64,000 nt of DNA from Candidatus Onthomonas sp. Lineage in GTDB: Bacteria; Bacillota; Clostridia; Oscillospirales; Oscillospiraceae. A program made the position numbers and the translations under genes. The DNA lies in NCBI GenBank assembly GCA_051866815.1, contig JBJDXS010000058.1:31706-95705 (forward strand). The letters are read 5' to 3'. The notes under the pieces are model-generated. The model saw only the letters and a program-made list of their open reading frames with translations, made no database searches and was not told where the DNA came from. Below are positions 49,256-64,000 of this stretch, piece after piece (the first letter of the stretch is position 1; the number at the start of each line of letters is the position of its first letter).

Positions 49256-50698
49256 TTATGCCAGCTTACGCTGCTTTTTCGTGCTGTACAGGAAGATGCC
49301 CAGGAACAGAGCGGCCAGGACGATGCCCACCGGATAGGCGATGGCGGTGCTCAGATGCAGGCACTCGGGAGCGCTGAAGAAATAGGTCATGGAGACCGCA
49401 CTCATGAAGGTAGCGGGCACCGCGGTGATCCAGTAGTTCTTCTTCTCCTGGAAGAGGAACATGCTGGCGGCCCACAGGACGATCATGGCCAGGGTCTGGT
49501 TGGTCCAGCTGAAGTAACGCCAGATCACGTTGTAGTCGATCTTGCCCAGAGCGTTGCCGATGCCCAGGATTGCGCCGACGCCCAGCACGGGGATGCAGAG
49601 CTTCAGGCGGTTAAGATAGTTCTTCTGGTCAATTTTGAACCAGTCGGCCAGCACCAGACGGGCGGAACGGAAGGCGGTGTCGCCGGAGGTGATGGGGCAG
49701 GCGATAACGCCCAGCATGGCCAGCACCAGGCCCACAGAGCCCATGGTCTTGGAGCAGATGTCATAGACGGTAGCGGGGCAGCCGCCGCCCATCTCCAGAA
49801 GCTGCGCGCCCTCGTAGATGGAGCAGCCGGCAGCGGCCCAGATCAGGGCGATGACGCCCTCACTGACCATGGCGCCGTAGAACACACAGTGGCCCTGCCG
49901 TTCAGACTTCATGCACCGGGCCATCAGCGGGGACTGGGTGGCGTGGAAGCCGGAGATGGCGCCGCAGGCCACGGTGATGAACATAAAGGACCAGACGGGC
50001 GTTCCGCTGGGATGCATATTAGTGAAGTTGGACCAGATCTCAGGGATGACATAGTTGGGATTGCTGAGCACGCCGAATCCCACGCCGACAGCCATGATGA
50101 TCAGGCAGATGCCGAAGACGGGATAGATCTTGCCGATGATCTTATCCACGGAGAGGAAGGTGGCGATGAAGTAGTAGACCAGGATGATGATCAGCCAGAA
50201 CAGCTTGCTGGACAGGATGTTGGTGACGCCCGCATTGCTGAACAGCAGCTGAATCAGGCCGGCGGGGCCGACTGCGAAGACGGTGCCTACCATGACCAGC
50301 AGCACCACGCTGAACACACGCATGACGTTCTTCATCACGTTGCCCAGATAGATGCCGGTGATCTCGGAGACGGACGCGCCCTCGTTGCGTTCGGAGAGCA
50401 TACCGGAGAAATAGTCGTGGACACCGCCGGCGAAAATGGTACCAAAGGTGATCCACAGGAACACGATGGGACCCCACAGCGCACCAGTCAATGCGCCGAA
50501 GATGGGACCCAGGCCGGCGATGTTCAGCAGCTGCACCAGAAACAGCTTCCACTGAGGCATCACCACGTAGTCCACGCCGTCGTTGATGCGGACGGCGGGC
50601 GTCTCTCTGTCGTCAGGAGCGAAGGTATTTTCGACTACTTTGCCGTAGACGAAATATCCGCCGATGAGCAGCAGCAGACAGATCAGAAAGCTTACCAT
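49256..50698 (-). CDS. cstA: CstA-family transporter (carbon starvation protein A / BtsT-like, short form)
   Basis: 480 aa, polytopic, with CstA-like N-terminal motifs (LLNIAGLGPIFGALTGALWGP, ISGFHATQSP). Confidence 0.88.
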   Translation of the reverse strand: MVSFLICLLLLIGGYFVYGKVVENTFAPDDRETPAVRINDGVDYVVMPQWKLFLVQLLNIAGLGPIFGALTGALWGPIVFLWITFGTIFAGGVHDYFSGMLSERNEGASVSEITGIYLGNVMKNVMRVFSVVLLVMVGTVFAVGPAGLIQLLFSNAGVTNILSSKLFWLIIILVYYFIATFLSVDKIIGKIYPVFGICLIIMAVGVGFGVLSNPNYVIPEIWSNFTNMHPSGTPVWSFMFITVACGAISGFHATQSPLMARCMKSERQGHCVFYGAMVSEGVIALIWAAAGCSIYEGAQLLEMGGGCPATVYDICSKTMGSVGLVLAMLGVIACPITSGDTAFRSARLVLADWFKIDQKNYLNRLKLCIPVLGVGAILGIGNALGKIDYNVIWRYFSWTNQTLAMIVLWAASMFLFQEKKNYWITAVPATFMSAVSMTYFFSAPECLHLSTAIAYPVGIVLAALFLGIFLYSTKKQRKLA

Positions 50699-50917
50699 AC
50701 AGAGACCTCCTTTATAGAATACCGATGCGGATTGCTCCGCTGTCGTGTCCTATTATAGTCCTTCGTAATTGAAATGCAATAGACTTTAAGAAAAAATTTT
50801 TCCTTTTCATTTTGACTTGCTTTTCCGCTGTGCAGCTACAAAGTGTTGTCCTTCAGAGACGGATGTGCATTGGGGCTAATTTTTGCTTCCGAATCGTAGG
50901 GATTGGGCGACAAGACG

Positions 50918-50947
50918 AAAAAGGGCGGATTGAGTCCTGCCCTTTTT
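50918..50947. terminator. Orphan bidirectional terminator-like hairpin in the cstA-ppdK divergent spacer
   Basis: AAAAAGGGCGGA-TTGAG-TCCTGCCCTTTTT, with no converging CDS on either side. Confidence 0.45.
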
Positions 50948-50968
50948 AGAAAAAATTACCGATAATCC

Positions 50969-50996
50969 TTGAAAAATTTCTTCCTATATGTATAAT
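50969..50996 (+). promoter_or_regulatory. ppdK promoter candidate (TTGAAA-16-TATAAT)
   Basis: TTGAAA at 50969-50974 and TATAAT at 50991-50996. Confidence 0.5.
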
Positions 50997-51078
50997 ATTA
51001 TGTGTGCAAGGAATGCTGCAATTCCCTGACCGGCGGATGAGGAACGAATCCGCCAGTTTCTATCAAAGGAGAGAGTTT

Positions 51079-53706
<2,628 letters not shown>

Positions 53707-53720
53707 AGTTTACAGCTGCA

Positions 53721-53757
53721 GCACCCCCGCACAGGCTCCTGTGCGGGGGTGCTTTTG
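53721..53757 (+). terminator. ppdK terminator
   Basis: GCACCCCCGCACAGG-loop-CCTGTGCGGGGGTGC followed by TTTT. Confidence 0.85.
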
Positions 53758-53820
53758 CGTCGGTTTTGCAATCTGACGGAAATCGAATTGCAAAACGCAC
53801 CCGTTTCGGTATGGAAATGC

Positions 53821-53850
53821 TTGACAGTTTCCCTGTATCCGTGTTACCAT
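53821..53850 (+). promoter_or_regulatory. Promoter candidate for the ATP-grasp operon (TTGACA-18-TACCAT)
   Basis: TTGACA at 53821-53826 and TACCAT at 53845-53850. The -10 is imperfect. Confidence 0.35.
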
Positions 53851-53856
53851 AATCAA

Positions 53857-53903
53857 GAAAACAAAGGTGTTTTGCATTTGCAAGGCGCCTTTGTTTCTTT
53901 TTT
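53857..53903 (+). promoter_or_regulatory. Leader terminator/attenuator hairpin upstream of the ATP-grasp operon
   Basis: AAACAAAGG (53859-67) pairs with CCTTTGTTT (53888-96), followed by C and TTTTTT. It lies between the candidate promoter and the start codon at 53957. Confidence 0.5.
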
Positions 53904-53956
53904 GGGGTATGCCATCTCCGGACACCCCCATGAGAGAGCAAAGAGAGGGTGATTCT

Positions 53957-55279
53957 ATGTACGATGAGATGGATCTGGTGACCCGCGCGGAGTCTGTCAA
54001 TATGCTGCTGGCCCGCTACGGAGTCAAGTTCGGCATCTACAAAAACAATACGTTTAAAGAGCAGCTCTTCCCCTTTGACGCCATTCCCCGGATCATTTCC
54101 GCCGACGAGTTTGAAATGCTGGACCGGGGCCTGCGCCAGCGGGTCAAGGCGCTGAATCTGTTTCTGGAGGACATCTACAACGAGAAGCGGATTGTCCGGG
54201 ACAAGGTGGTGCCGGAGGAGTTTATCTACGCCTCCAGCGGCTATCTGGCCCAGTGCGAGGGTATCCGCCCGCCCCACGGCGTGGCCTCCCACATCTCCGG
54301 CATCGACCTGGTGCTGGGCAAGGACGGCGTCTGGTATATTCTGGAGGACAATCTGCGGGTGCCCTCCGGCGCCTCCTATCCCCTGATTGCCCGGGAGCTC
54401 TGCCGCCGGAGCAGTCCACGCACCTTCCAGGACTATCACATTGAGGACAACCGGAACTATGCCCAGCTGCTGAGCCACACCATGGAGTATGCCAGCACCG
54501 GCGGCCTCACCGTGGTGCTCACCCCCGGCCGGTACAACGCCGCCTACTTCGAGCACTCCTATCTGGCGGAGCAGACCCACTGCCCTCTAGTCAGCGGCCA
54601 GGATCTGGTGGTGGAGCCGGACGGCGTCTATTTCGTGGACTACACTGGCAAAAAGGAGCGGGTCGGCGCCATCTACCGCCGGATCTCTGATGAGTATCTG
54701 GATCCCCTCCACTTCTGCCGGGAGTCGGTGATCGGTGTGCCCAACCTGTTCTCCGCCTATCAGAAGGGCCAGGTGGCCATTCTCAACGCTCCGGGCAATG
54801 GCATCGCCGATGACAAGGGCATCTACTACTTCGTCCCCAAGATGATCCGCTACTATCTGGGGGAGGAGCCCATCCTCTCCAACGCCCCCACCTATCTGCC
54901 CTTCTACGAGGAGGATATGAAGTACACCCTGGAGCACTTCGACTCTCTGGTGCTCAAGGACGTGGCCGAGGCGGGAGGCTACGGCGTGGTCTTCGGCAGC
55001 AAGATGACCGCCAAACAGAAGGAGGACTTTATCGCCCTGCTCAAGGCGGAGCCCCGCCGGTTCATCGCCCAGGAGGTCATCGACTTCCAGGATCTGGACA
55101 TTATGGACGAGGGCAAACGGGTGCCACGGAAGGCGGATCTCCGGGCTTTCGTCCTCTCTTCTGAGGAACCGGTGGTCTGGAAGAGCGGCCTGACCCGGTT
55201 CTCCCGCAATCCCGATTCTTTCATCGTCAATTCTTCTCAAGGAGGAGGCTTTAAGGACACATGGGTGTTAAGTCGTTAG
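53957..55279 (+). CDS. Circularly permuted type-2 ATP-grasp protein (COG2308 family)
   Basis: 440 aa from MYDEMDLVT (AGAGGGTGA SD). The sequence pattern (FPFDAIPRIIS..EF..L..GL.QR..ALN.FL.DIY, VLEDNLRVPSG, APGNGIADDK) matches this family. Confidence 0.85.
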   Translation: MYDEMDLVTRAESVNMLLARYGVKFGIYKNNTFKEQLFPFDAIPRIISADEFEMLDRGLRQRVKALNLFLEDIYNEKRIVRDKVVPEEFIYASSGYLAQCEGIRPPHGVASHISGIDLVLGKDGVWYILEDNLRVPSGASYPLIARELCRRSSPRTFQDYHIEDNRNYAQLLSHTMEYASTGGLTVVLTPGRYNAAYFEHSYLAEQTHCPLVSGQDLVVEPDGVYFVDYTGKKERVGAIYRRISDEYLDPLHFCRESVIGVPNLFSAYQKGQVAILNAPGNGIADDKGIYYFVPKMIRYYLGEEPILSNAPTYLPFYEEDMKYTLEHFDSLVLKDVAEAGGYGVVFGSKMTAKQKEDFIALLKAEPRRFIAQEVIDFQDLDIMDEGKRVPRKADLRAFVLSSEEPVVWKSGLTRFSRNPDSFIVNSSQGGGFKDTWVLSR

Positions 55280-55926
55280 ATGTGACCAACCGGCTGTTCT
55301 GGCTGGGCCGGTATTCGGAGCGGGTGTATACCACCCTGCAGCTGTTTGCAAAGCGGTATGACCAGATGTTGGATCAGGGGGACACCTACGGGGAGTTCTG
55401 CCAGTCCCTGGACATTCCCAATATCTATCCCACGGCGCAAAACTTCCTGCGCCGGTATCCCTTTGACGAGAGCGATCCCAACTCCATCGCCAGCAACCTC
55501 CGCCGGGCCTATGACAACGGCATCGAGCTGCGGCAGGAGATCGGCACCGAGGAGCTGAGCTATATCCAGCTGGCCGTCTATGAGATGAACCGGGCCCGGA
55601 ACAGTCAGGCCCCCATGCTGGAGTTCCAGAAGATCGTGGACAACATTCTGGCCTTCTGGGGCATCATTGACGACCAAGTGGAGGATGAGAATACCCGCAA
55701 CATCATCAAGGTGGGCAAGCGGGTGGAGCGCATCGACCTCTATGGCCGTCTGCACATGCCCGCCCCCGCCCTGCGCCGGGAAGTGCGCCGGCTGCTGGGC
55801 CGGATTGACCGGTGCACCGTCTGTTACCATCTGGATCGGCGGAACCAGCTGCTCCAGCTGGTGGAGGCGGAAAGCCTGGACTACCGGGCCATTGTGGACT
55901 GCGTTGAGCATCTGACGGAGGTCTGA
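55261..55926 (+). CDS. Alpha-E domain protein (COG2307 family)
   Basis: N-terminal RLFWLGRYSERVY signature, all-helical. Overlaps the ATP-grasp gene by 19 nt. Confidence 0.8.
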   Translation: MGVKSLDVTNRLFWLGRYSERVYTTLQLFAKRYDQMLDQGDTYGEFCQSLDIPNIYPTAQNFLRRYPFDESDPNSIASNLRRAYDNGIELRQEIGTEELSYIQLAVYEMNRARNSQAPMLEFQKIVDNILAFWGIIDDQVEDENTRNIIKVGKRVERIDLYGRLHMPAPALRREVRRLLGRIDRCTVCYHLDRRNQLLQLVEAESLDYRAIVDCVEHLTEV

Positions 55927-55927
55927 G

Positions 55928-56743
55928 ATGGAGGAGCTGCGATACGAATACAGTCTCCGGCTCCAGTTTTCCCAGCCGGCGTGGAATCACCGGTTTTTCC
56001 TCCGTGCCTTCCCCCAATCGGACGGGCGTCAGCAGCTCTTTGATCAGCGGATCGAGATCTCCCCCCACCGCTTTCTCCAGGAAAGCAGAGATTCCTTCGG
56101 GAACCTCTGCTTTTATGGTGCGGCCGAGGAGGAGCAGGACGCATTTTTGGTGGAGGTCACCGGCTGGGCCAGAACCGGCCTGTCCTCAGGCGTGCCGGAG
56201 CCGAATCCGGAGCGGTGGAGCGCGATGAAATATCCCTCCCCCTACACCCGGCCCGGCCCCCATCTGCTGGCCCTGGCCCGGCGGCTGCCGCCCCGGAGTG
56301 AGAATTGCGCTCCCCTGGAGCGCAGCATCCAACTCATGGAGGCGGTCTACAGCGCCCTGTCCTACCAGCAGTGGGTCACCGGCATCCAGACCACCGCCGA
56401 GGAGGCCCTGGCCCTGGGGGCGGGGGTTTGTCAGGACTATGCCCACATCCTTCTGGCCCTGTGCCGGCTGGAGGGAATTCCCGCCCGGTATGTGGTGGGC
56501 ATGCTCCAGGGCGAGGGGGCCAGCCATGCTTGGGTGGAGGTGCTCAGCCAGGGCCGCTGGTACGGCCTGGATCCCACCAATTTGCTCCGTGTGGAGGGGC
56601 AGCACATCAAAATCTCCTGCGGGAGAGACTACGGAGACTGTATTTTAAATCAGGGCGTCTTTCTGGGGGGCGGAACCCAGACTCAGACCGTGCGGGTGTC
56701 TGTCTCGCCCTGTACTATCCCCTTGGAAGCGGGAGAACTGTGA
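55928..56743 (+). CDS. Transglutaminase-like cysteine peptidase (COG1305 family)
   Basis: The catalytic triad contexts are intact: GAGVCQDYAH (Cys), GASHAWVEV (His), WYGLDPTN (Asp). Starts 1 nt after the alpha-E stop. Confidence 0.85.
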   Translation: MEELRYEYSLRLQFSQPAWNHRFFLRAFPQSDGRQQLFDQRIEISPHRFLQESRDSFGNLCFYGAAEEEQDAFLVEVTGWARTGLSSGVPEPNPERWSAMKYPSPYTRPGPHLLALARRLPPRSENCAPLERSIQLMEAVYSALSYQQWVTGIQTTAEEALALGAGVCQDYAHILLALCRLEGIPARYVVGMLQGEGASHAWVEVLSQGRWYGLDPTNLLRVEGQHIKISCGRDYGDCILNQGVFLGGGTQTQTVRVSVSPCTIPLEAGEL

Positions 56744-56755
56744 GGAGTGATTGTT

Positions 56756-57691
56756 ATGATTCAGACGGTGGCGTCCATCCCATTGCCCGTCTTTGAAAAT
56801 CTGGTTATCCAGAAAAACCGCCTGTCCCCGGCCTCCGGGGCCAAGGGCAGGCGGATCAGTGTTGTCACCGGTATCCACGGCGATGAACTGGAGGGGCAGT
56901 ACGTCTGCTACCAGCTCTGCCGCCAGATTCAGGAACACCCGGAGTACCTCCAGGGCACGGTAGATCTCTATCCCGCCCTGAATCCCTTGGGCATCGACTC
57001 GGTGACCCGGGGCATTCCCGGCTTTGACCTGGACATGAACCGGCTGTTTCCCGGCAGCCGGGACGGGGCCATGACCGAGTACATGGCCGCCAAGATCATC
57101 GAGGATCTGCTGGGCTCTGACCTGTGCCTGGACATCCACGCCAGCAATATCTATCTCACCGAGATGCCCCAGATCCGCATCAACGAGCTGTTCCGGGATC
57201 AGCTAATGGACTACGCTAAGCTGGCCAATGTGGACTTTATCTGGGTGCACGGGGCCAATACCGTGCTGGAGGCCACCCTGGCCCACAGCCTGAACAGCCG
57301 GAATGTCCCCACCCTGGTGGTGGAGATGGGAGTGGGTATGCGATTGACCCCGTCTTACGGCGACCAGCTCACTCAAGGCATTTTCCGGCTGATGGCGGAG
57401 CTGGGCATTTGGACCGGGCCGGTACCTGAGGTGCGGACGCCCGTGATCTCTGAGGAGGGGGACGCCGTCTGCTATCTCAACGCCCCGGTCTCCGGTATCT
57501 TTCTCAAAGAGAGCACCCACGGAACCATGCTGAGAGCGGGCGACCGGATCGGCTCCATCCTCAACCCCCTCACCGGCGAAATTCTCTGCCAGGTCACCGC
57601 TCCGGCGGACGGCCTGCTCTTCACCATCCGGGAGTACCCGGTGGTGGACGAGGGGTCGCTGCTGGCCCGAATCCGGAAGGAGGCTGTGTGA
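56756..57691 (+). CDS. M14 metallopeptidase of the succinylglutamate desuccinylase/aspartoacylase (AstE/AspA) type, motifs intact
   Basis: The Zn ligands are in GIHGDELEG (HxxE) and CLDIHAS (His). DMNRLFPG is present, and LVVEMG holds the candidate catalytic Glu. Confidence 0.8.
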   Translation: MIQTVASIPLPVFENLVIQKNRLSPASGAKGRRISVVTGIHGDELEGQYVCYQLCRQIQEHPEYLQGTVDLYPALNPLGIDSVTRGIPGFDLDMNRLFPGSRDGAMTEYMAAKIIEDLLGSDLCLDIHASNIYLTEMPQIRINELFRDQLMDYAKLANVDFIWVHGANTVLEATLAHSLNSRNVPTLVVEMGVGMRLTPSYGDQLTQGIFRLMAELGIWTGPVPEVRTPVISEEGDAVCYLNAPVSGIFLKESTHGTMLRAGDRIGSILNPLTGEILCQVTAPADGLLFTIREYPVVDEGSLLARIRKEAV

Positions 57692-57692
57692 C

Positions 57693-58625
57693 ATGAGACA
57701 GAGCGTCATCTATGAGATTCCCTCCCTCTATCGGGAGAATTTCCGCATCCACGGCTACACCTTCGGCCAGGGGGAGAAGGCCCTGTGCGTGGTGGGCAGC
57801 CTCCGGGGCAATGAGTACCAGCAGATCTACACCTGCTCCCAACTGGTCAAAGCCCTGAAGCGGGCGGAGCAGCGGGGAGAGCTGAGTCCCGGCAAGGAGA
57901 TTCTGGTGCTGCCCTCCCTGAACCCCTATTCCATGAATGTGGGGAAACGGTTCTGGCCCACCGACAATACCGACATCAACCGGATGTTCCCCGGCTACGA
58001 CCAGGGGGAGACCACCCAGCGGATTGCAGACGGCGTGTTCCGTCAGATATCCCAGTACGAAAACGGCATCCAGTTGGCCTCCTTCTATATGCCCGGCCAG
58101 TTTCTGCCCCATGTACGGATGATGCGCACCGGCTTTGAGAATGTGGAAAAGGCTAAAGAATTTGGCTTGCCCCACATCATCCTCCGGGATCCCCGGCCCT
58201 ATGATACCACCACCCTGAACTACAACTGGCAGATCTGGAACACCAACGCCTACAGCATTTACACTACCACCACTGGCGCCATCGATGAGGTCAGCGCTGA
58301 CCTGGCCGTCCGGGCAATCCTCCGATTCCTGGCCCGGGAGGGGGTATTGGACCATCCGGTGGGGGGCGGCTATCTGTCCCAGGTGTGGGAGGACAGTACG
58401 CTTGCTTCGGTGCGGCCCCGCTACGCGGGCATCTTCCGGCCCCTGTGCAAGCCGGGAGATCGGATCACCGCCGGCGACCCGCTGGCGGAAATTCTGGATC
58501 CCGGGGAGGGCAGCGCTCTGGAGCGGCTGCTGGCGCCCTGTGACGGCGTGGTCTTCTTCCTCCACAGCGACCCCATGACCTATGCCAACACGGCGGTGGT
58601 AAAACTGCTGCCGGAGCGGTATTGA
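57693..58625 (+). CDS. AstE/AspA-type M14 paralog lacking the metal-binding and catalytic residues
   Basis: Collinear with the upstream paralog (DINRMFPG conserved), but GIHGDELEG becomes GSLRGNEYQQ, LDIHAS becomes IQLASF, and VVEMG becomes IYTTTTG. Confidence 0.75.
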   Translation: MRQSVIYEIPSLYRENFRIHGYTFGQGEKALCVVGSLRGNEYQQIYTCSQLVKALKRAEQRGELSPGKEILVLPSLNPYSMNVGKRFWPTDNTDINRMFPGYDQGETTQRIADGVFRQISQYENGIQLASFYMPGQFLPHVRMMRTGFENVEKAKEFGLPHIILRDPRPYDTTTLNYNWQIWNTNAYSIYTTTTGAIDEVSADLAVRAILRFLAREGVLDHPVGGGYLSQVWEDSTLASVRPRYAGIFRPLCKPGDRITAGDPLAEILDPGEGSALERLLAPCDGVVFFLHSDPMTYANTAVVKLLPERY

Positions 58626-58645
58626 CAGCGACACCCCATAAAAAT

Positions 58646-58677
58646 GCGCCGTCCGGCTTGCCGGGCGGCGCTCTTTT
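58646..58677. terminator. Bidirectional terminator between the M14 pair and the YheO-like gene
   Basis: GCGCCG(T)CCGG-CTTG-CCGG(G)CGGCGC, flanked by AAAAA on the left and TCTTTT on the right. Confidence 0.8.
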
Positions 58678-58695
58678 CCATCGTATCGAATTTTC

Positions 58696-59355
58696 TCAGG
58701 CTTCCTCTTTTTCCGCCTCTCCCCGGGCGGCTTTTTCCTCGGCCAGCTCAGAGAGGTACTTGTACACCGTATACCGGGACACGCCCAGCCGCTGGGAGAC
58801 AAAGGGCACCGACTTCCGGAAGGAGAAGGCCTCCTTCTGATCCAGCAGGGCGATGATCTTCATCCGATCCACCTTGTTCAGCGCGGAGACCGGCTTGCCC
58901 ACGGCGGCCAGGCACTCGTCAAAGACCTCGCCCAGGCGATTGTCCCCGCTGTGCCACATAGCAGATTTCAGGTCGGCGTCGGCGCTCATCAGGTCGACCA
59001 GAATCCGGTTGGCGTAGACCAGGGAGGAATAGTCAAAGTTAATGCCCAGGGCCAGATTGTAGTCCTCTCCGATCATGTGGAAGGTAGAGCTCTTGATCTG
59101 CTGACCGGAGGGGGTAGTGGCGTAGAGGTTGACAAAGTCGGTCTTCAGTCCCTCTTCACTGAGCTGGGTCTCATTGCCCAAAATGTCCATAGTGGAACCA
59201 ACTGCCCGACCGGAGACATGGCCGTTATAGATCGAGAGGATCGGATGACTGGGAATACTCATGTCGTGAACTAATGTCTCGCAGGAGGAGCCAAAGGTTT
59301 CTGCGATGCCTTTAGCTGTCCGATCCAAAAATTCAAACGCTTCTTCCCGGTTCAT
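58696..59355 (-). CDS. YheO-like PAS domain plus C-terminal HTH transcriptional regulator
   Basis: The N-terminal part is ...SCETLVHD...ILSIYNGHVSGR...G. The C-terminal HTH is VSQRLGVSRYTVYKYL. Start is ATG 59355, after AAGAGGAGAG. Confidence 0.78.
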   Translation of the reverse strand: MNREEAFEFLDRTAKGIAETFGSSCETLVHDMSIPSHPILSIYNGHVSGRAVGSTMDILGNETQLSEEGLKTDFVNLYATTPSGQQIKSSTFHMIGEDYNLALGINFDYSSLVYANRILVDLMSADADLKSAMWHSGDNRLGEVFDECLAAVGKPVSALNKVDRMKIIALLDQKEAFSFRKSVPFVSQRLGVSRYTVYKYLSELAEEKAARGEAEKEEA

Positions 59356-59392
59356 GGCGGTCTCTCCTCTTCCCGCAAGATTTGTCATATTT

Positions 59393-59422
59393 ATTATAAA
59401 AGAATCGACCAACTGATGTCAA
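59393..59422 (-). promoter_or_regulatory. Promoter candidate for the YheO-like gene (TTGACA-18-TATAAT)
   Basis: Minus-strand TTGACA (plus 59417-59422) and TATAAT (plus 59393-59398). Confidence 0.5.
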
Positions 59423-59578: not shown

Positions 59579-61202
<1,624 letters not shown>

Positions 61203-61324
61203 TACTGTTCCCCCATATTGTTATATGGAAACAGTTTATCCTAGTCAAAATGTTTACTAATCTTTCAGGACAAATTTTTACTGGATTTCTCCCAACATAC
61301 CCTTTAAAGTAAAAATATTTACTA

Positions 61325-61353
61325 TTGACATCAGTACACAAGTTTACTAAAAT
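61325..61353 (+). promoter_or_regulatory. Promoter candidate (TTGACA-17-TAAAAT) for the secreted hydrolase gene
   Basis: TTGACA at 61325-61330 and TAAAAT at 61348-61353. Two of the four TTTACT repeats overlap it. Confidence 0.5.
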
Positions 61354-61429
61354 ATAGAAAACAAAAAGAAAGGAGGGCAGTCTTTGGACATGCGTTTGAG
61401 GCGCAAAAAAATAAAAAGGGGGTACTTTT

Positions 61430-62464
61430 ATGAAGAAACGTATTCTGTCTCTGTTCCTGGCAGTCATAACAATTATGGGACTCTTTGTTGTGCCTGCATC
61501 CGCTGTAGATCTTCCTGCTGTTTCGTCCAGCAAATATATCTCCTGCTATACGCTAAGCACATCCGGTAAAGTGTATGCTTATAAAGAAGATGAATTGAAG
61601 AACAAGACCGGAGGCTATATTGACTGTTCCACAGATGAATGCCGCATCATCGAATTCAGCGGAACAGCTGTGCGGGTATCTTATCCGGTTTCCGGCGGGC
61701 GCAAGACTGCCTGGTTTGACCATGAAGCTTTTACCAAGCGGGATTGGGCGGTACGAGGCCCTCAGTCCAAGATGACGGCAACCAAGCAGATTACAACCTA
61801 TAAGCGGCAGTCGTGCAGCAGTGATGTGAAGTATGGGTATATTTCCAAAGGCGATGTAATTTATGTCAACAAAGAATATGATGATGTTACGCAGGTGATT
61901 TATCCCACTGGAAGCACTTACAAGATGGCGTGGGTATTGACCAGTGACCTATATGGTACGCAGAATTCCACAGAGGCTGCGGTACAGGCTAGATTAGATA
62001 AAATCGCAAATGGAACACTAAAGTATAATTCCGACACAGTTCTGCAAGTCGGAAAAACCTTTGTTGGATATAGGGAAAATGAGCAATGTAAAGGTTATGC
62101 AAAAGATGTATTCGAGCTCTGCTTTGGAATTACACCTGGTAGCACGCAAGCAAAGCCAAACAATCATCTGCTAAATTCCACCTCAGGAATGACTAAGGTA
62201 GGCAGCGTTACATCTATGACTAACAGCAACGTAAAGGCTCTTTTCAGCAAAGCTCGTCCCGGTGATTTCGTTCAGATCCGCCGCAGTCATGGTGGTTCGC
62301 ATTCGGCAATTGTCTACTCTGTGTCTTCCGATGGAGTAACCTTCCTTGAGGCGAACCTTGATGGAAAGAATACAATTTATAAGAAAACTTATACCTGGAG
62401 CAGTCTTTGCTCATCCAATGCCAAGATGTCTGTTTACACAGCCACGAACTACAAACTGAAATAA
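61430..62464 (+). CDS. Secreted protein: signal peptide, two SH3b-like repeats, and a C-terminal CHAP/NlpC-like cysteine amidase/peptidase domain
   Basis: The signal peptide is MKKRILSLFLAVITIMGLFVVPASA. Two roughly 70-aa repeats end in ...AWF/AWV. The C-terminus has NEQCKGYAKDVF (Cys), GGSHSAIVYSV (His) and FLEANLDG (polar third residue). Clearly lower GC than neighbouring genes. Confidence 0.7.
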   Translation: MKKRILSLFLAVITIMGLFVVPASAVDLPAVSSSKYISCYTLSTSGKVYAYKEDELKNKTGGYIDCSTDECRIIEFSGTAVRVSYPVSGGRKTAWFDHEAFTKRDWAVRGPQSKMTATKQITTYKRQSCSSDVKYGYISKGDVIYVNKEYDDVTQVIYPTGSTYKMAWVLTSDLYGTQNSTEAAVQARLDKIANGTLKYNSDTVLQVGKTFVGYRENEQCKGYAKDVFELCFGITPGSTQAKPNNHLLNSTSGMTKVGSVTSMTNSNVKALFSKARPGDFVQIRRSHGGSHSAIVYSVSSDGVTFLEANLDGKNTIYKKTYTWSSLCSSNAKMSVYTATNYKLK

Positions 62465-62473
62465 GAAACACTG

Positions 62474-62500
62474 CCCCCGACTCCACACGGAGCCGGGGGC
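62474..62500. terminator. Hairpin between the hydrolase gene and gpmI
   Basis: CCCCCG(A)CTCC-ACAC-GGAG(C)CGGGGG. The T tracts on both sides are weak. Confidence 0.45.
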
Positions 62501-62535
62501 GGCGCTCATTTCAGAGATTCACTTGTACCGGAAGC

Positions 62536-64000
62536 TCAGTCGTCAATCAGGCTGACGCCGTCCATCTCCACAGGCTTCTCCAGGCCCATGAGATCCAGCA
62601 TAGTGGGGGCGATGTCGCACAGACGGCCGTCCTTCAGCTTGACGTCGGCGCCCACGATGCAGAAGGGCACCAGGTTGGTGGTATGGGCGGTCATGGGAGA
62701 GACGCCGTCGGCCTGGAGCATCTGCTCGCAGTTGCCGTGGTCGGCGGTGATCAGGGTGACGCCGCCCATCTTGCTGGTGGCCTCCACCACCTGGCCCACG
62801 CAGCGATCCACCGTCTCCACAGCGATCTCAGCCGCGCTGAGGACGCCGGTGTGGCCCACCATATCGCCGTTGGCGAAGTTGAGGATGATGACGTCGTACT
62901 TGCCGCTTTCGATGCGCTCCACACAGGCGGCAGCCACCTCGTTGGCGGACATGTCCGGCTTCAGGTCGTAGGTGGCAACCTTGGGGGAGGGGATCAAGCA
63001 GCGGTCCTCGCCGGGGAAGACCTTCTCCACGCCGCCGTTGAAGAAGAAGGTGACGTGGGCGTACTTCTCGGTCTCGGCAATCCGCAGCTGGGTCAGGCCC
63101 AGGTCGGAGATATACTCGCCGAAGATCTTGGTCAGCTTCTGCTTGGGGAAGGCGATCTCCACGTTGGGCATGGTGGCGTCATAGGAGGTGGTGCACACAT
63201 AGTTGACGTGGAAGAAGCCCTTGCGGCGCTCAAAGCCCTTGAACTCGGGATCCACAAAGGTGCGGGTGATCTCCCGGGCACGGTCAGGCCGGAAGTTCAT
63301 AAAGATGATGGAGTCGCCCTCGCCGATTTCTGCGTTCTCGGCGGTGATGACGGGCACCACGAACTCATCGGTGACGCCGGCGTCATAGCTGGCCTGCATG
63401 GCGCCCACAGGGTCGTCGATGAAGCGGGCCTCGCTCTCGCCGTAGACCATGGCCTTGTAGCTCTTCTCCACACGATCCCAGTTGGTGTCCCGGTCCATGG
63501 CATAGTACCGGCCGGAGATGGTGGCGATCTTGGCGCCGTACTGGTCGCAGGTCTCCTTCATCTGAGCCACATAGCCCTTGCCGGAGGTGGGGGGCACGTC
63601 ACGGCCGTCCATGAAGCAGTGGACAAAGACCTTTTTGCAGCCCAGCTCCCGGGCCATCTTGACGGCGGCCTGAATATGGGTGATGTGGGAGTGGACGCCG
63701 CCGTCGGACATGAGGCCGTAGATGTGGACAGCCTTGCCCGCTTCCTTGGCGGCCAGCATGGCCTTCTTGTAGGCGGGATTCTCGAAGAAAGTGCCGTCCT
63801 GGATGGCCTTGGTGATCTTGGGCAGATCCTGGAACACCACACGGCCGGCGCCGATATTGGTATGTCCCACCTCGCTGTTGCCCATCTGGCCGTCAGGCAG
63901 ACCCACGTCCATGCCGGAGGCGGAGAGACGGCTGGTGGGATTCTCGGCAAACAGCTTGTCCAGAACAGGAGTGGGGGCCAGCCGGAAGGCGTTGCCCTCG
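62536..64000 (-). CDS. gpmI: 2,3-bisphosphoglycerate-independent phosphoglycerate mutase; 5' end beyond the window
   Basis: GLPDGQMGNSEVGHTNIGAGR and ITADHGNCE motifs. The frame stays open upstream of the track Met to nt 64000 (...NAFRLAPTPVLDKLFAENPTSRLSASG). Confidence 0.93.
   Translation of the reverse strand, partial: EGNAFRLAPTPVLDKLFAENPTSRLSASGMDVGLPDGQMGNSEVGHTNIGAGRVVFQDLPKITKAIQDGTFFENPAYKKAMLAAKEAGKAVHIYGLMSDGGVHSHITHIQAAVKMARELGCKKVFVHCFMDGRDVPPTSGKGYVAQMKETCDQYGAKIATISGRYYAMDRDTNWDRVEKSYKAMVYGESEARFIDDPVGAMQASYDAGVTDEFVVPVITAENAEIGEGDSIIFMNFRPDRAREITRTFVDPEFKGFERRKGFFHVNYVCTTSYDATMPNVEIAFPKQKLTKIFGEYISDLGLTQLRIAETEKYAHVTFFFNGGVEKVFPGEDRCLIPSPKVATYDLKPDMSANEVAAACVERIESGKYDVIILNFANGDMVGHTGVLSAAEIAVETVDRCVGQVVEATSKMGGVTLITADHGNCEQMLQADGVSPMTAHTTNLVPFCIVGADVKLKDGRLCDIAPTMLDLMGLEKPVEMDGVSLIDD

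Follow-up and report, generated by a model that had tools for sequence, protein, structure and literature searches.

Genes for a circularly permuted type-2 ATP-grasp protein (COG2308), an alpha-E protein (COG2307) and a transglutaminase-like cysteine peptidase (TGL, COG1305) form a triad that, to our knowledge, has stood as a widespread conserved neighbourhood with no known reaction since 2008-2009. We describe here a five-gene operon in a window of 64,000 nucleotides (nt) of Candidatus Onthomonas sp. DNA (contig JBJDXS010000058.1), in which this triad (G1 to G3) is followed by two paralogous AstE/AspA-type M14 metallopeptidase genes (G4, encoding M14-A, and G5, encoding M14-B) and preceded by a structured leader; all operon coordinates are window positions. 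The Aravind group predicted that the triad ligates peptide tags and that the TGL removes them (PMC3495828, PMC5666114, PMC3235984), and the preliminary description of this DNA was right in treating the triad as a known neighbourhood that carries such a prediction. The Anbu operons of Proteobacteria, Cyanobacteria and others hold the same three families in the same order as here, with a TGL that likewise bears a Bact_transglu_N domain. The present locus differs from them in that an AstE/AspA M14 pair follows the TGL, Anbu is missing, and the alpha-E protein is truncated to about 221 amino acids (aa) in this lineage.

Glutathionylspermidine synthetase/amidase (GspSA) joins an ATP-grasp ligase and a papain-like Cys amidase that act on the same small-molecule amide. 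It resembles the operon in combining a GspS-like ATP-grasp ligase with a thiol amidase, but its two parts are fused and its amidase is a CHAP domain, whereas here the genes are separate, the hydrolase is a TGL, and alpha-E and an M14 pair are added. Among the AstE/AspA deacylases, DoeB cuts N-acetyl-diaminobutyrate and AstE cuts succinylglutamate. M14-A shares with AstE, aspartoacylase and DoeB the family HxxE...H zinc site, the catalytic Glu and an N-R carboxylate-binding motif, but it lies far below their equivalog cut-offs and is always paired with a second paralog, which in this lineage appears dead. The cyanophycin system, a nitrogen store, follows a logic like that proposed here: an ATP-dependent non-ribosomal ligase (CphA1, with its ATP-grasp domain), a polymer or oligomer peptidase (cyanophycinase) and a terminal dipeptidase of AstE/AspA fold (CphZ, the top fold match of M14-B). 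It differs in that G1 is no CphA homologue, the TGL is no S51 cyanophycinase, and the sequence matches of M14-A and M14-B to CphZ are weak (E about 1e-5) and confined to the C-terminal part. CphZ is a homodimer that cuts the beta-Asp-Arg dipeptide left after cyanophycin breakdown, and by the published standard AotO, at 38% identity, was confirmed as a CphZ, while homologues at 27-29% identity fell below the cut-off (PMC9974463).

The reading that we favour, tentatively and at somewhat less than even confidence, is that the operon encodes a cytoplasmic, probably nitrogen-status-controlled system for making and later hydrolysing amide or isopeptide bonds that link amino acids or closely related acids and amines. 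G1, translationally coupled to G2, would most likely act with it as the ligase, turning a carboxylate into an acyl-phosphate that is joined to an amine. The G3 thiol hydrolase and a putative M14-A/M14-B heteromer would then take the ligase product, or derivatives of it, apart in two steps; M14-B would serve as a dead, ligand-binding or regulatory partner, and M14-A would act last, freeing an amino acid from an N-acyl-amino acid or an isodipeptide. A small conjugate or short oligomer of non-ribosomal origin is a likelier substrate than a protein tail, and a terminator close to the promoter, open to disruption by a mini-hairpin, would control expression. The composition of all five products is that of soluble proteins (GRAVY from -0.47 to 0.08, isoelectric points 4.9-6.2), and no signal peptide or membrane segment is apparent in them.

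A homologue scan of one genome per species gave at least 594 stretches with a G1 relative, the best 80 of which (74-99% identical in G1) were analysed; two more loci found through M14-A bring the set of related loci to 82, and about 75 of the 80 hold enough downstream DNA. The best 80 come mostly from Lachnospiraceae (Blautia, Roseburia, Butyrivibrio, Acetatifactor, Fusicatenibacter and others) and in part from Oscillospiraceae; the top match in genome collections, at 99% identity, is a metagenome-assembled genome of Candidatus Onthomonas (Oscillospiraceae). The triad genes are adjacent and co-directional in the order ATP-grasp, alpha-E, TGL both here and in the related loci, and the full order G1 to G5 is kept in every related locus with enough downstream DNA except one (L015). 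Because the same genes recur in the same order in all but one adequate locus, the arrangement lies far beyond chance. The spacing described at the outset (junctions of -19 nt for G1-G2, +1 for G2-G3, +12 for G3-G4 and +1 for G4-G5) is reproduced exactly by the open reading frame (ORF) coordinates with revised starts; across the related loci the 19-nt G1-G2 overlap is kept in 63 of 71, and the median gaps at the other junctions are 12, 12 and -4 nt. No ORF for Anbu is present at 53700-58700, and no extra gene, Anbu included, is conserved in the flanks of the 82 loci, where only minority associations occur; the five genes therefore form a self-contained module.

All five family assignments proposed from the letters alone are correct by Pfam. 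G1 matches CP_ATPgrasp_2 (PF14403) over profile positions 1-373 of 374 (E 2e-135, 452 bits against a cut-off of 32), which places the first ORF within the COG2308-type ATP-grasp proteins. The structure nearest to it, PDB 3n6x from Methylobacillus, aligns end to end (E 3.5e-113) and is annotated as a putative glutathionylspermidine synthase, and by these matches G1 is assigned to the GspS-like permuted ATP-grasp family. RimK and TTL models gave no match to G1, for which Pfam reports CP_ATPgrasp_1 and CP_ATPgrasp_2 only and NCBIfam reports nothing. Between the window and the loci L004-L082, G1 is 74-80% identical across the Oscillospiraceae and Lachnospiraceae while the TGL is only 35-52% identical, a contrast to be explained either by unusually tight constraint on the ligase or by the module having spread horizontally in recent times.

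For G2 the alpha-E assignment holds as to family (PF04168, E 4.5e-20) but not as to length: the match covers only positions 6-163 of the 294-position profile, and at 221 aa the protein falls short of a full-length alpha-E domain (about 300 aa). The 120 closest homologues among the matches listed measure 192-239 aa. The AlphaFold2 (AF2) model is an all-helical bundle with a predicted local distance difference test (pLDDT) score of 93.5, and a fold search of that model against the PDB gave no meaningful match (best E 0.45). G3 combines Bact_transglu_N with Transglut_core (core domain E 1.3e-18) and aligns with PDB 3isr (E 5.5e-14) such that Cys168, His200 and Asp215 coincide. The catalytic triad that had been read as intact is indeed so, with C168 and H200 each present in 69 of 69 orthologues and D215 in 68 of 69.

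The M14 pair is where the findings depart most from the preliminary description, which had seen two equivalent metallopeptidases. The assignment to AstE_AspA_cat (PF24827) stands for both, at E 2e-23 for G4 and 2.2e-11 for G5, as does the fold; the proteins align with deacylase relatives over nearly their whole length and are 22% identical to each other. Both lie far under every NCBIfam equivalog cut-off (DoeB, AstE, aspartoacylase), M14-A scoring 49 bits against 402.7 for DoeB and 16 against 170 for AstE, and M14-A therefore represents a separate AstE/AspA subfamily; the PDB sequences nearest to it are 3cdx, 2qj8 and DoeB 6twm. What fails is equivalence. All 109 orthologues of M14-A have the zinc ligands H41, E44 and H128, the catalytic E190 and N95, and 108 of them have R96. 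M14-B carries R38 in place of the first His in 119 of 119 orthologues, A, T, P or S at position 129 in place of the second, and T, G or S at position 191 in place of the catalytic Glu; only E41 and N96-R97 are retained of the active-site features. A double M14 eraser, as first envisaged, is thus not what the operon encodes, for only M14-A has the H-x-x-E...H...E set.

The loss in M14-B goes together with strong conservation: among the 119 orthologues, conservation reaches 95% or more at 110 of its 310 positions, and motifs peculiar to it include KRFWxTDNTDINRMFPGY, SFYMPGxFxPH and PYDTTTLNYNWQ. Its AF2 model (pLDDT 85.5) has CphZ, 3cdx, 2qj8 and DoeB as top fold matches in the PDB, with E 5e-19 at 15% identity against CphZ 8eip. 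We therefore regard M14-B, from its sequence, as probably a conserved pseudo-peptidase or else an enzyme with a different mechanism. The conserved loss of a zinc site in one paralog, while related five-gene loci retain that site, amounts to a clean case of pseudoenzyme evolution within an operon. That M14-A and M14-B would form a heteromer is the obvious inference. The most conserved M14-B loop, SMNVGKRFWPTDNTD (residues 79-93, window 57927-57971), is the only long low-confidence segment of the AF2 model (pLDDT < 50), and its ordering may depend on complex formation or on a ligand. Relatives of M14-B number 1337 at E <= 0.001 among 1.84 billion representative proteins.

Wherever a full-length context was sampled, across phyla, the two M14 paralogs stand side by side, whether with the triad, with a TGL and MoxR, or alone. 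The same five genes occur in a Nitrospirota metagenome-assembled genome (MAG; L141), with a short second gene of 210 aa and an M14-B of the Arg type; in Heliorestis acidaminivorans (L142), with a full-length alpha-E of 318 aa and a second M14 that retains His/Glu/His; and in a gammaproteobacterial MAG (L143), with a full-length alpha-E of 325 aa and a second M14 likewise retaining His/Glu/His. In L144 (5227-7999) a TGL and an M14 pair stand behind a MoxR AAA+/DUF4350/DUF4129/TPR set with no ATP-grasp or alpha-E gene, and the pair is found alone in L148 and, beside a polar-amino-acid ABC transporter, in L145. M14 adjacency, the conservation of which had been left to be checked in relatives, is thus conserved across at least three phyla, and because the pair also exists with no ligase nearby, it stands as a two-gene unit of its own and not as an eraser appended to the triad. 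From L144, the TGL and M14 pair together may be a sub-module that several systems share. The short second gene of L141 is alpha-E-like and has no Pfam match; in the four cases sampled (L141, L142, L143 and this lineage) a short second gene accompanies a dead M14-B and the loci with a full-length alpha-E have a second M14 of the active type; alpha-E length and the state of the second M14 may have changed in correlation.

The argument for a small substrate rests on these relatives. We prefer a small conjugate or oligomer over protein tails or a purely catabolic route because the characterised M14 relatives act on small substrates and because the cyanophycin and GspSA systems provide precedents. 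The nearest sequence or fold relatives are CphZ, DoeB, AstE and AstE/AspA proteins from structural genomics, with alignments of nearly full length, and the stand-alone M14 pair of L145 adjoins a transporter of polar amino acids.

The second line of evidence concerns the leader. A hairpin resembling an intrinsic terminator (arms 53864-53875 and 53880-53891, followed by a T-rich tail) is overlapped in its left arm by a competing mini-hairpin of 4-5 bp, in which 53859-53862 pair with 53869-53872 around the hexaloop AAAGGT. The consensus across loci is RAAC-R-AAGGCGTTYTGC-loop-GCARRGCGCCTTTTT; the four bases 5' of the terminator stem pair with GTTY in its left arm to give a 4-bp mini-hairpin with the consensus hexaloop AAAGGC, whose fourth base is always G and whose first is A or G. 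A covariance model, R1, was built from 50 leaders. In the 64-kb window it has one strong match (53858-53899, 51.5 bits, E 3e-10), the next, unrelated site scoring 19.5 bits, and a + strand match lies ahead of the operon in about 67 of the 82 loci. The mini-hairpin is 95% paired, with A-U/G-C covariation at two positions and 21 compensatory cells, a count that is independent of any selection for pairing, and its score was reached by none of 500 shuffles. The leader is an RNA element and not an operator, because G-U pairs occur on the + strand only. As a DNA operator, the inverted repeat was rejected on the same strand bias, on the varying spacing of its arms, and on the covariation of both terminator and mini-hairpin. 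The two structures are predicted to be mutually exclusive, which is the anatomy of an attenuator. A scan of the leader against Rfam returned nothing credible.

An exact-pattern scan of metagenomes for the leader gave 31 distinct sequences. The R-C-R 5' flank is present in 19, and G1 is the next gene in 12 of these; of the other seven, two precede urtABC, one each precedes a polar-amino-acid ABC transporter, an amidase resembling gamma-glutamyl-GABA (gamma-aminobutyrate) hydrolase and an Lrp/AsnC regulator, and the remaining sites are a decayed operon remnant and a site just downstream of glyA. The flank is absent from 12 sequences, none of which has G1 next and most of which lie 20-40 nt past a stop codon as ordinary terminators. 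The urtABC genes stand behind the leader in L131 and L134 (UrtA 508.6 bits, above the cut-off), and polar-amino-acid ABC transporters do so in L031 and L056, as operons that run into G1, and in L103/L125; the binding protein of L056 has an aspartate/glutamate-binding protein as its best family match, below the cut-off. In L076 the leader is followed by citrate synthase, isocitrate dehydrogenase and G1, and weaker R1 matches lie upstream of transporter genes in L017, L037 and L051. Further loci bearing the leader are L095, L111 and L126. In L084, L091, L121 and L139 the leader hairpin is joined directly to a 3' fragment of M14-B (aa 187-306, 42% identity; for example L091 1911-2299), which looks like a deletion scar left by the loss of G1 to G4.

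The genes that share the leader belong to nitrogen scavenging and assimilation, a set that agrees with a published observation: in P. putida limited for nitrogen, no locus was induced more strongly than the triad+Anbu operon (PMC3235984, note added in proof). The gammaproteobacterial locus (L143) has a P-II gene nearby. Neighbours and leader together point to a link with nitrogen or amino-acid metabolism, which is an addition to the preliminary description. The closest described leaders are those of ANTAR targets. Like the present element, they have a hexaloop whose fourth base is G and whose first is mostly A, the 3' strand of the hairpin lies within a terminator, and they are associated with nitrogen-metabolism genes, including urea transporters (PMC3369931). 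They differ in that two tandem mini-hairpins are required, whereas one is seen here; inspection by eye of several leaders revealed no upstream partner hairpin of the ANTAR type. A possible reading of the element is an attenuator of a nitrogen regulon, built like one half of an ANTAR target.

Several points weigh against the proposed system. No enzyme activity, substrate or product for any member of COG2308, COG2307 or COG1305 was located in the literature, nor, in its searchable part, biochemical data on a carboxylate-amine ligase activity of any COG2308 member. An operon encoding both a ligase and hydrolases for one and the same bond would sustain a futile cycle, barring regulation of the enzymes or different target bonds. 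The exclusion of large substrates by AstE/AspA-type enzymes is general background from aspartoacylase structure papers. M14-B may have a new activity and not be inert, being highly conserved at positions that include His140, Arg142 and Asp171. As to the leader, the 99.8% pairing of the terminator helix and its 72 compensatory cells are partly circular, the alignment having been chosen for pairing; the stem sequence alone was rejected as a specific motif, being also an ordinary 3' terminator where the R-C-R flank is missing; and we infer the nitrogen signal solely from which genes share the leader. One COG2308 protein, Rv2411c, was tried in a single reaction as a candidate GABA-trehalose synthetase, with a negative result (bioRxiv 10.64898/2026.04.15.718621).

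The published prediction for the triad (PMC3495828, PMC5666114) also weighs on that side, and it leads to protein tagging and untagging: the ATP-grasp protein would add tails of amino acids or peptides to target proteins, alpha-E serving as adaptor or target, and the TGL and M14-A would remove them, much as in the TTL/CCP or RimK systems. We consider this unlikely. In its favour, the triad of Proteobacteria has a link to Anbu, a homologue of the proteasome (PMC3235984), the catalytic triad of the TGL is intact, and in L144 the TGL and M14 pair accompany a MoxR AAA+ system predicted to degrade proteins (PMC3495828). The likeness to TTL/CCP and RimK lies in the concept of an ATP-grasp writer with an M14 eraser; the families differ, for the ATP-grasp protein here is permuted and GspS-like and the M14 proteins belong to the AstE/AspA branch. 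Neither G4 nor G5 matches Peptidase_M14 (PF00246), AstE_AspA_cat alone being reported at E <= 0.01, and the characterised relatives in this branch cut small N-acyl amino acids or an isodipeptide (PMC9974463), which leaves the analogy to tubulin and CCPs drawn in the preliminary description a weak one. The M14 pair is moreover found with no ligase, once adjoining an amino-acid transporter; the operon holds no Anbu, target or tag gene; and co-expressing Anbu with its operon partners failed to change Anbu (PMC5666114). The writer and eraser scheme is, overall, partly supported.

Catabolic scavenging, for pure nitrogen acquisition, would have the ligase load an incoming amine or amino compound on a carrier acid, as PuuA does, with the TGL and M14-A later releasing ammonia or amino acids. 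It fits the presence of the same leader ahead of genes for the uptake of urea and amino acids and for a PuuD-like gamma-glutamyl amidase, the four loci in which a polar-amino-acid ABC transporter extends the 5' end of the operon, and the association with citrate synthase and isocitrate dehydrogenase, suppliers of 2-oxoglutarate and glutamate. The module, however, lacks any oxidase, dehydrogenase or transaminase that could alter the conjugate after ligation and before hydrolysis, and transporters adjoin it in only a minority of the 82 loci, most of which have no conserved flanking gene; on balance this explanation is improbable. A pathway for a ribosomally synthesized peptide or other secondary metabolite, with the TGL as a leader protease and G1 as a graspetide-type macrocyclase, has in its favour the existence of ATP-grasp macrocyclases and a weak match of G3 to NCBIfam lasso B2 (23.1 bits, below the cut-off of 33), but is highly improbable given that related loci show no conserved small ORF or precursor, exporter or other flanking gene, that G1 falls in the GspS-like permuted family, and that the module is extremely conserved, one per sampled locus across hundreds of species, unlike natural-product clusters. 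An anti-phage defence or stress-toxin system, suggested by the differing genomic contexts of the module, is least credible of all, with no PADLOC match for any of the five proteins, housekeeping neighbours, and no mobile-element genes noticed beside the module in the partly annotated flanks.

The features of the operon are collected in Table 1. Its five co-directional + strand genes (53957-58625) lie between the terminator of a pyruvate phosphate dikinase (PPDK) gene, which ends at 53706, and a convergent YheO-like gene. The ORF of G1 was listed from a GTG at 53867; the likelier start, judged by eye, is the ATG at 53957, which is preceded by AGAGAGGG. The in-frame GTG adds 30 codons across the leader hairpin (53867-53956), and this longer start, which automatic annotation could choose, is probably wrong. 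The start of G4, listed from 56747, was moved to the ATG at 56756 because its orthologues measure 311 aa. Promoters resembling the one in the table stand upstream of the leader hairpin in many related loci, as judged by eye. No + strand promoter-like site was found inside the operon, where two weak terminator-like stems of 5 pairs are listed (at 54137 and 58533); given the tiny gaps and the missing internal promoter, the five genes are likely co-transcribed. The terminator had been described as strong and bidirectional: the + strand hairpin (58646-58671) is as strong as stated, and in view of the A-run upstream its action in both directions is plausible.

Table 1. Positions of the genes and control elements of the five-gene operon within the window
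Feature	Position	Strand	Basis or description
Sigma-70-like promoter	53821..53850	+	TTGACA-18-TACCAT with TG upstream
Leader element, intrinsic-terminator-like hairpin with overlapping mini-hairpin	53858..53899	+	Listed terminator-like site; covariance model R1
G1, permuted type-2 ATP-grasp (COG2308 type), 440 aa, presumed carboxylate-amine ligase	53957..55279	+	Pfam PF14403, PDB 3n6x
G2, short alpha-E, 221 aa	55261..55926	+	PF04168
G3, transglutaminase-like Cys peptidase/amidase (TGL), 271 aa	55928..56743	+	Bact_transglu_N + Transglut_core
G4 (M14-A), AstE/AspA-type zinc deacylase/dipeptidase, 311 aa, catalytically complete	56756..57691	+	PF24827
G5 (M14-B), AstE/AspA-fold pseudo-peptidase, 310 aa, probable non-catalytic M14-A partner	57693..58625	+	PF24827
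Operon terminator, common to the convergent YheO-like gene	58646..58677	.	11-bp stem, 10 G-C pairs, T-run

The operon is set among central-carbon genes (49256-53706 and 59579-63912), namely CstA, PPDK, enolase and cofactor-independent phosphoglycerate mutase. The convergent YheO-like gene (58696-59412, - strand) encodes a regulator with PAS_6 and HTH_22 domains and has a perfect 12/12 sigma-70 consensus promoter, TTGACA-18-TATAAT (59393-59422, - strand); as a candidate regulator of the operon it was rejected, not being kept beside the module in other loci. L015 (527-3392) is the only related locus that has G1 to G3 but no M14 gene; neither M14 genes nor remnants were found in the 7.5 kb downstream, and the absence reflects either lineage-specific loss or mis-assembly. 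Citrate synthase and isocitrate dehydrogenase adjoin the module in L068, L070, L073 and L076 (4863-7493), and in a Lachnospiraceae MAG (L072, 5583-8210) they are inserted between alpha-E and the TGL. A Cytidylate_kin2-like protein and a fusion of an ArAE/FUSC membrane domain with a Cof-type HAD phosphatase recur directly before G1 or after G5 (L056, 7125-9032; L051, L081, L076, L023 and L072). Modules with a 74-77% identical G1 in MAGs labelled Prevotella, Treponema, Muribaculum, Holdemanella and Gastranaerophilales (L019, L023, L038, L055, L057, L058 and L079) more likely reflect binning contamination than real transfer.

The triad is thus a known, uncharacterised neighbourhood, the form with the M14 pair is a new variant of it, and no new chemistry has been shown yet. 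In the searchable literature we located no functional study of the five-gene system or the triad, in keeping with the earlier statement that its function is undefined, and no description of the M14-pair variant, its pseudoenzyme or its leader; the primary prediction paper of 2009 lay outside this coverage and could mention an M14 link. The most specific form of our proposal, which we regard as bold and doubtful as it stands, is that the module both makes and recycles an undescribed nitrogen-rich amino-acid conjugate or short non-ribosomal polymer, comparable to cyanophycin or glutathionylspermidine, in abundant gut Clostridia. A heterodimer of a catalytic and a pseudo-enzyme M14 would be its dedicated terminal hydrolase, and its switch would be a new antitermination element with a single hairpin, marking out a nitrogen regulon (uptake of urea and amino acids, supply of 2-oxoglutarate). 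Were this so, the COG2308/2307/1305 triad of the Anbu operons would also have its first known chemistry. Compared with the classical Anbu form, the variant offers handles of its own: its hydrolases come from a family whose chemistry on small molecules is known (N-acyl amino acids, isodipeptides), the M14 pair is portable and can be assayed by itself, and the leader ties the operon to urea and amino-acid uptake and to 2-oxoglutarate supply. The carriers are hundreds of species of Lachnospiraceae and Oscillospiraceae, major gut bacteria, in which a nitrogen metabolite or pathway of this kind would matter for the physiology of gut microbes.

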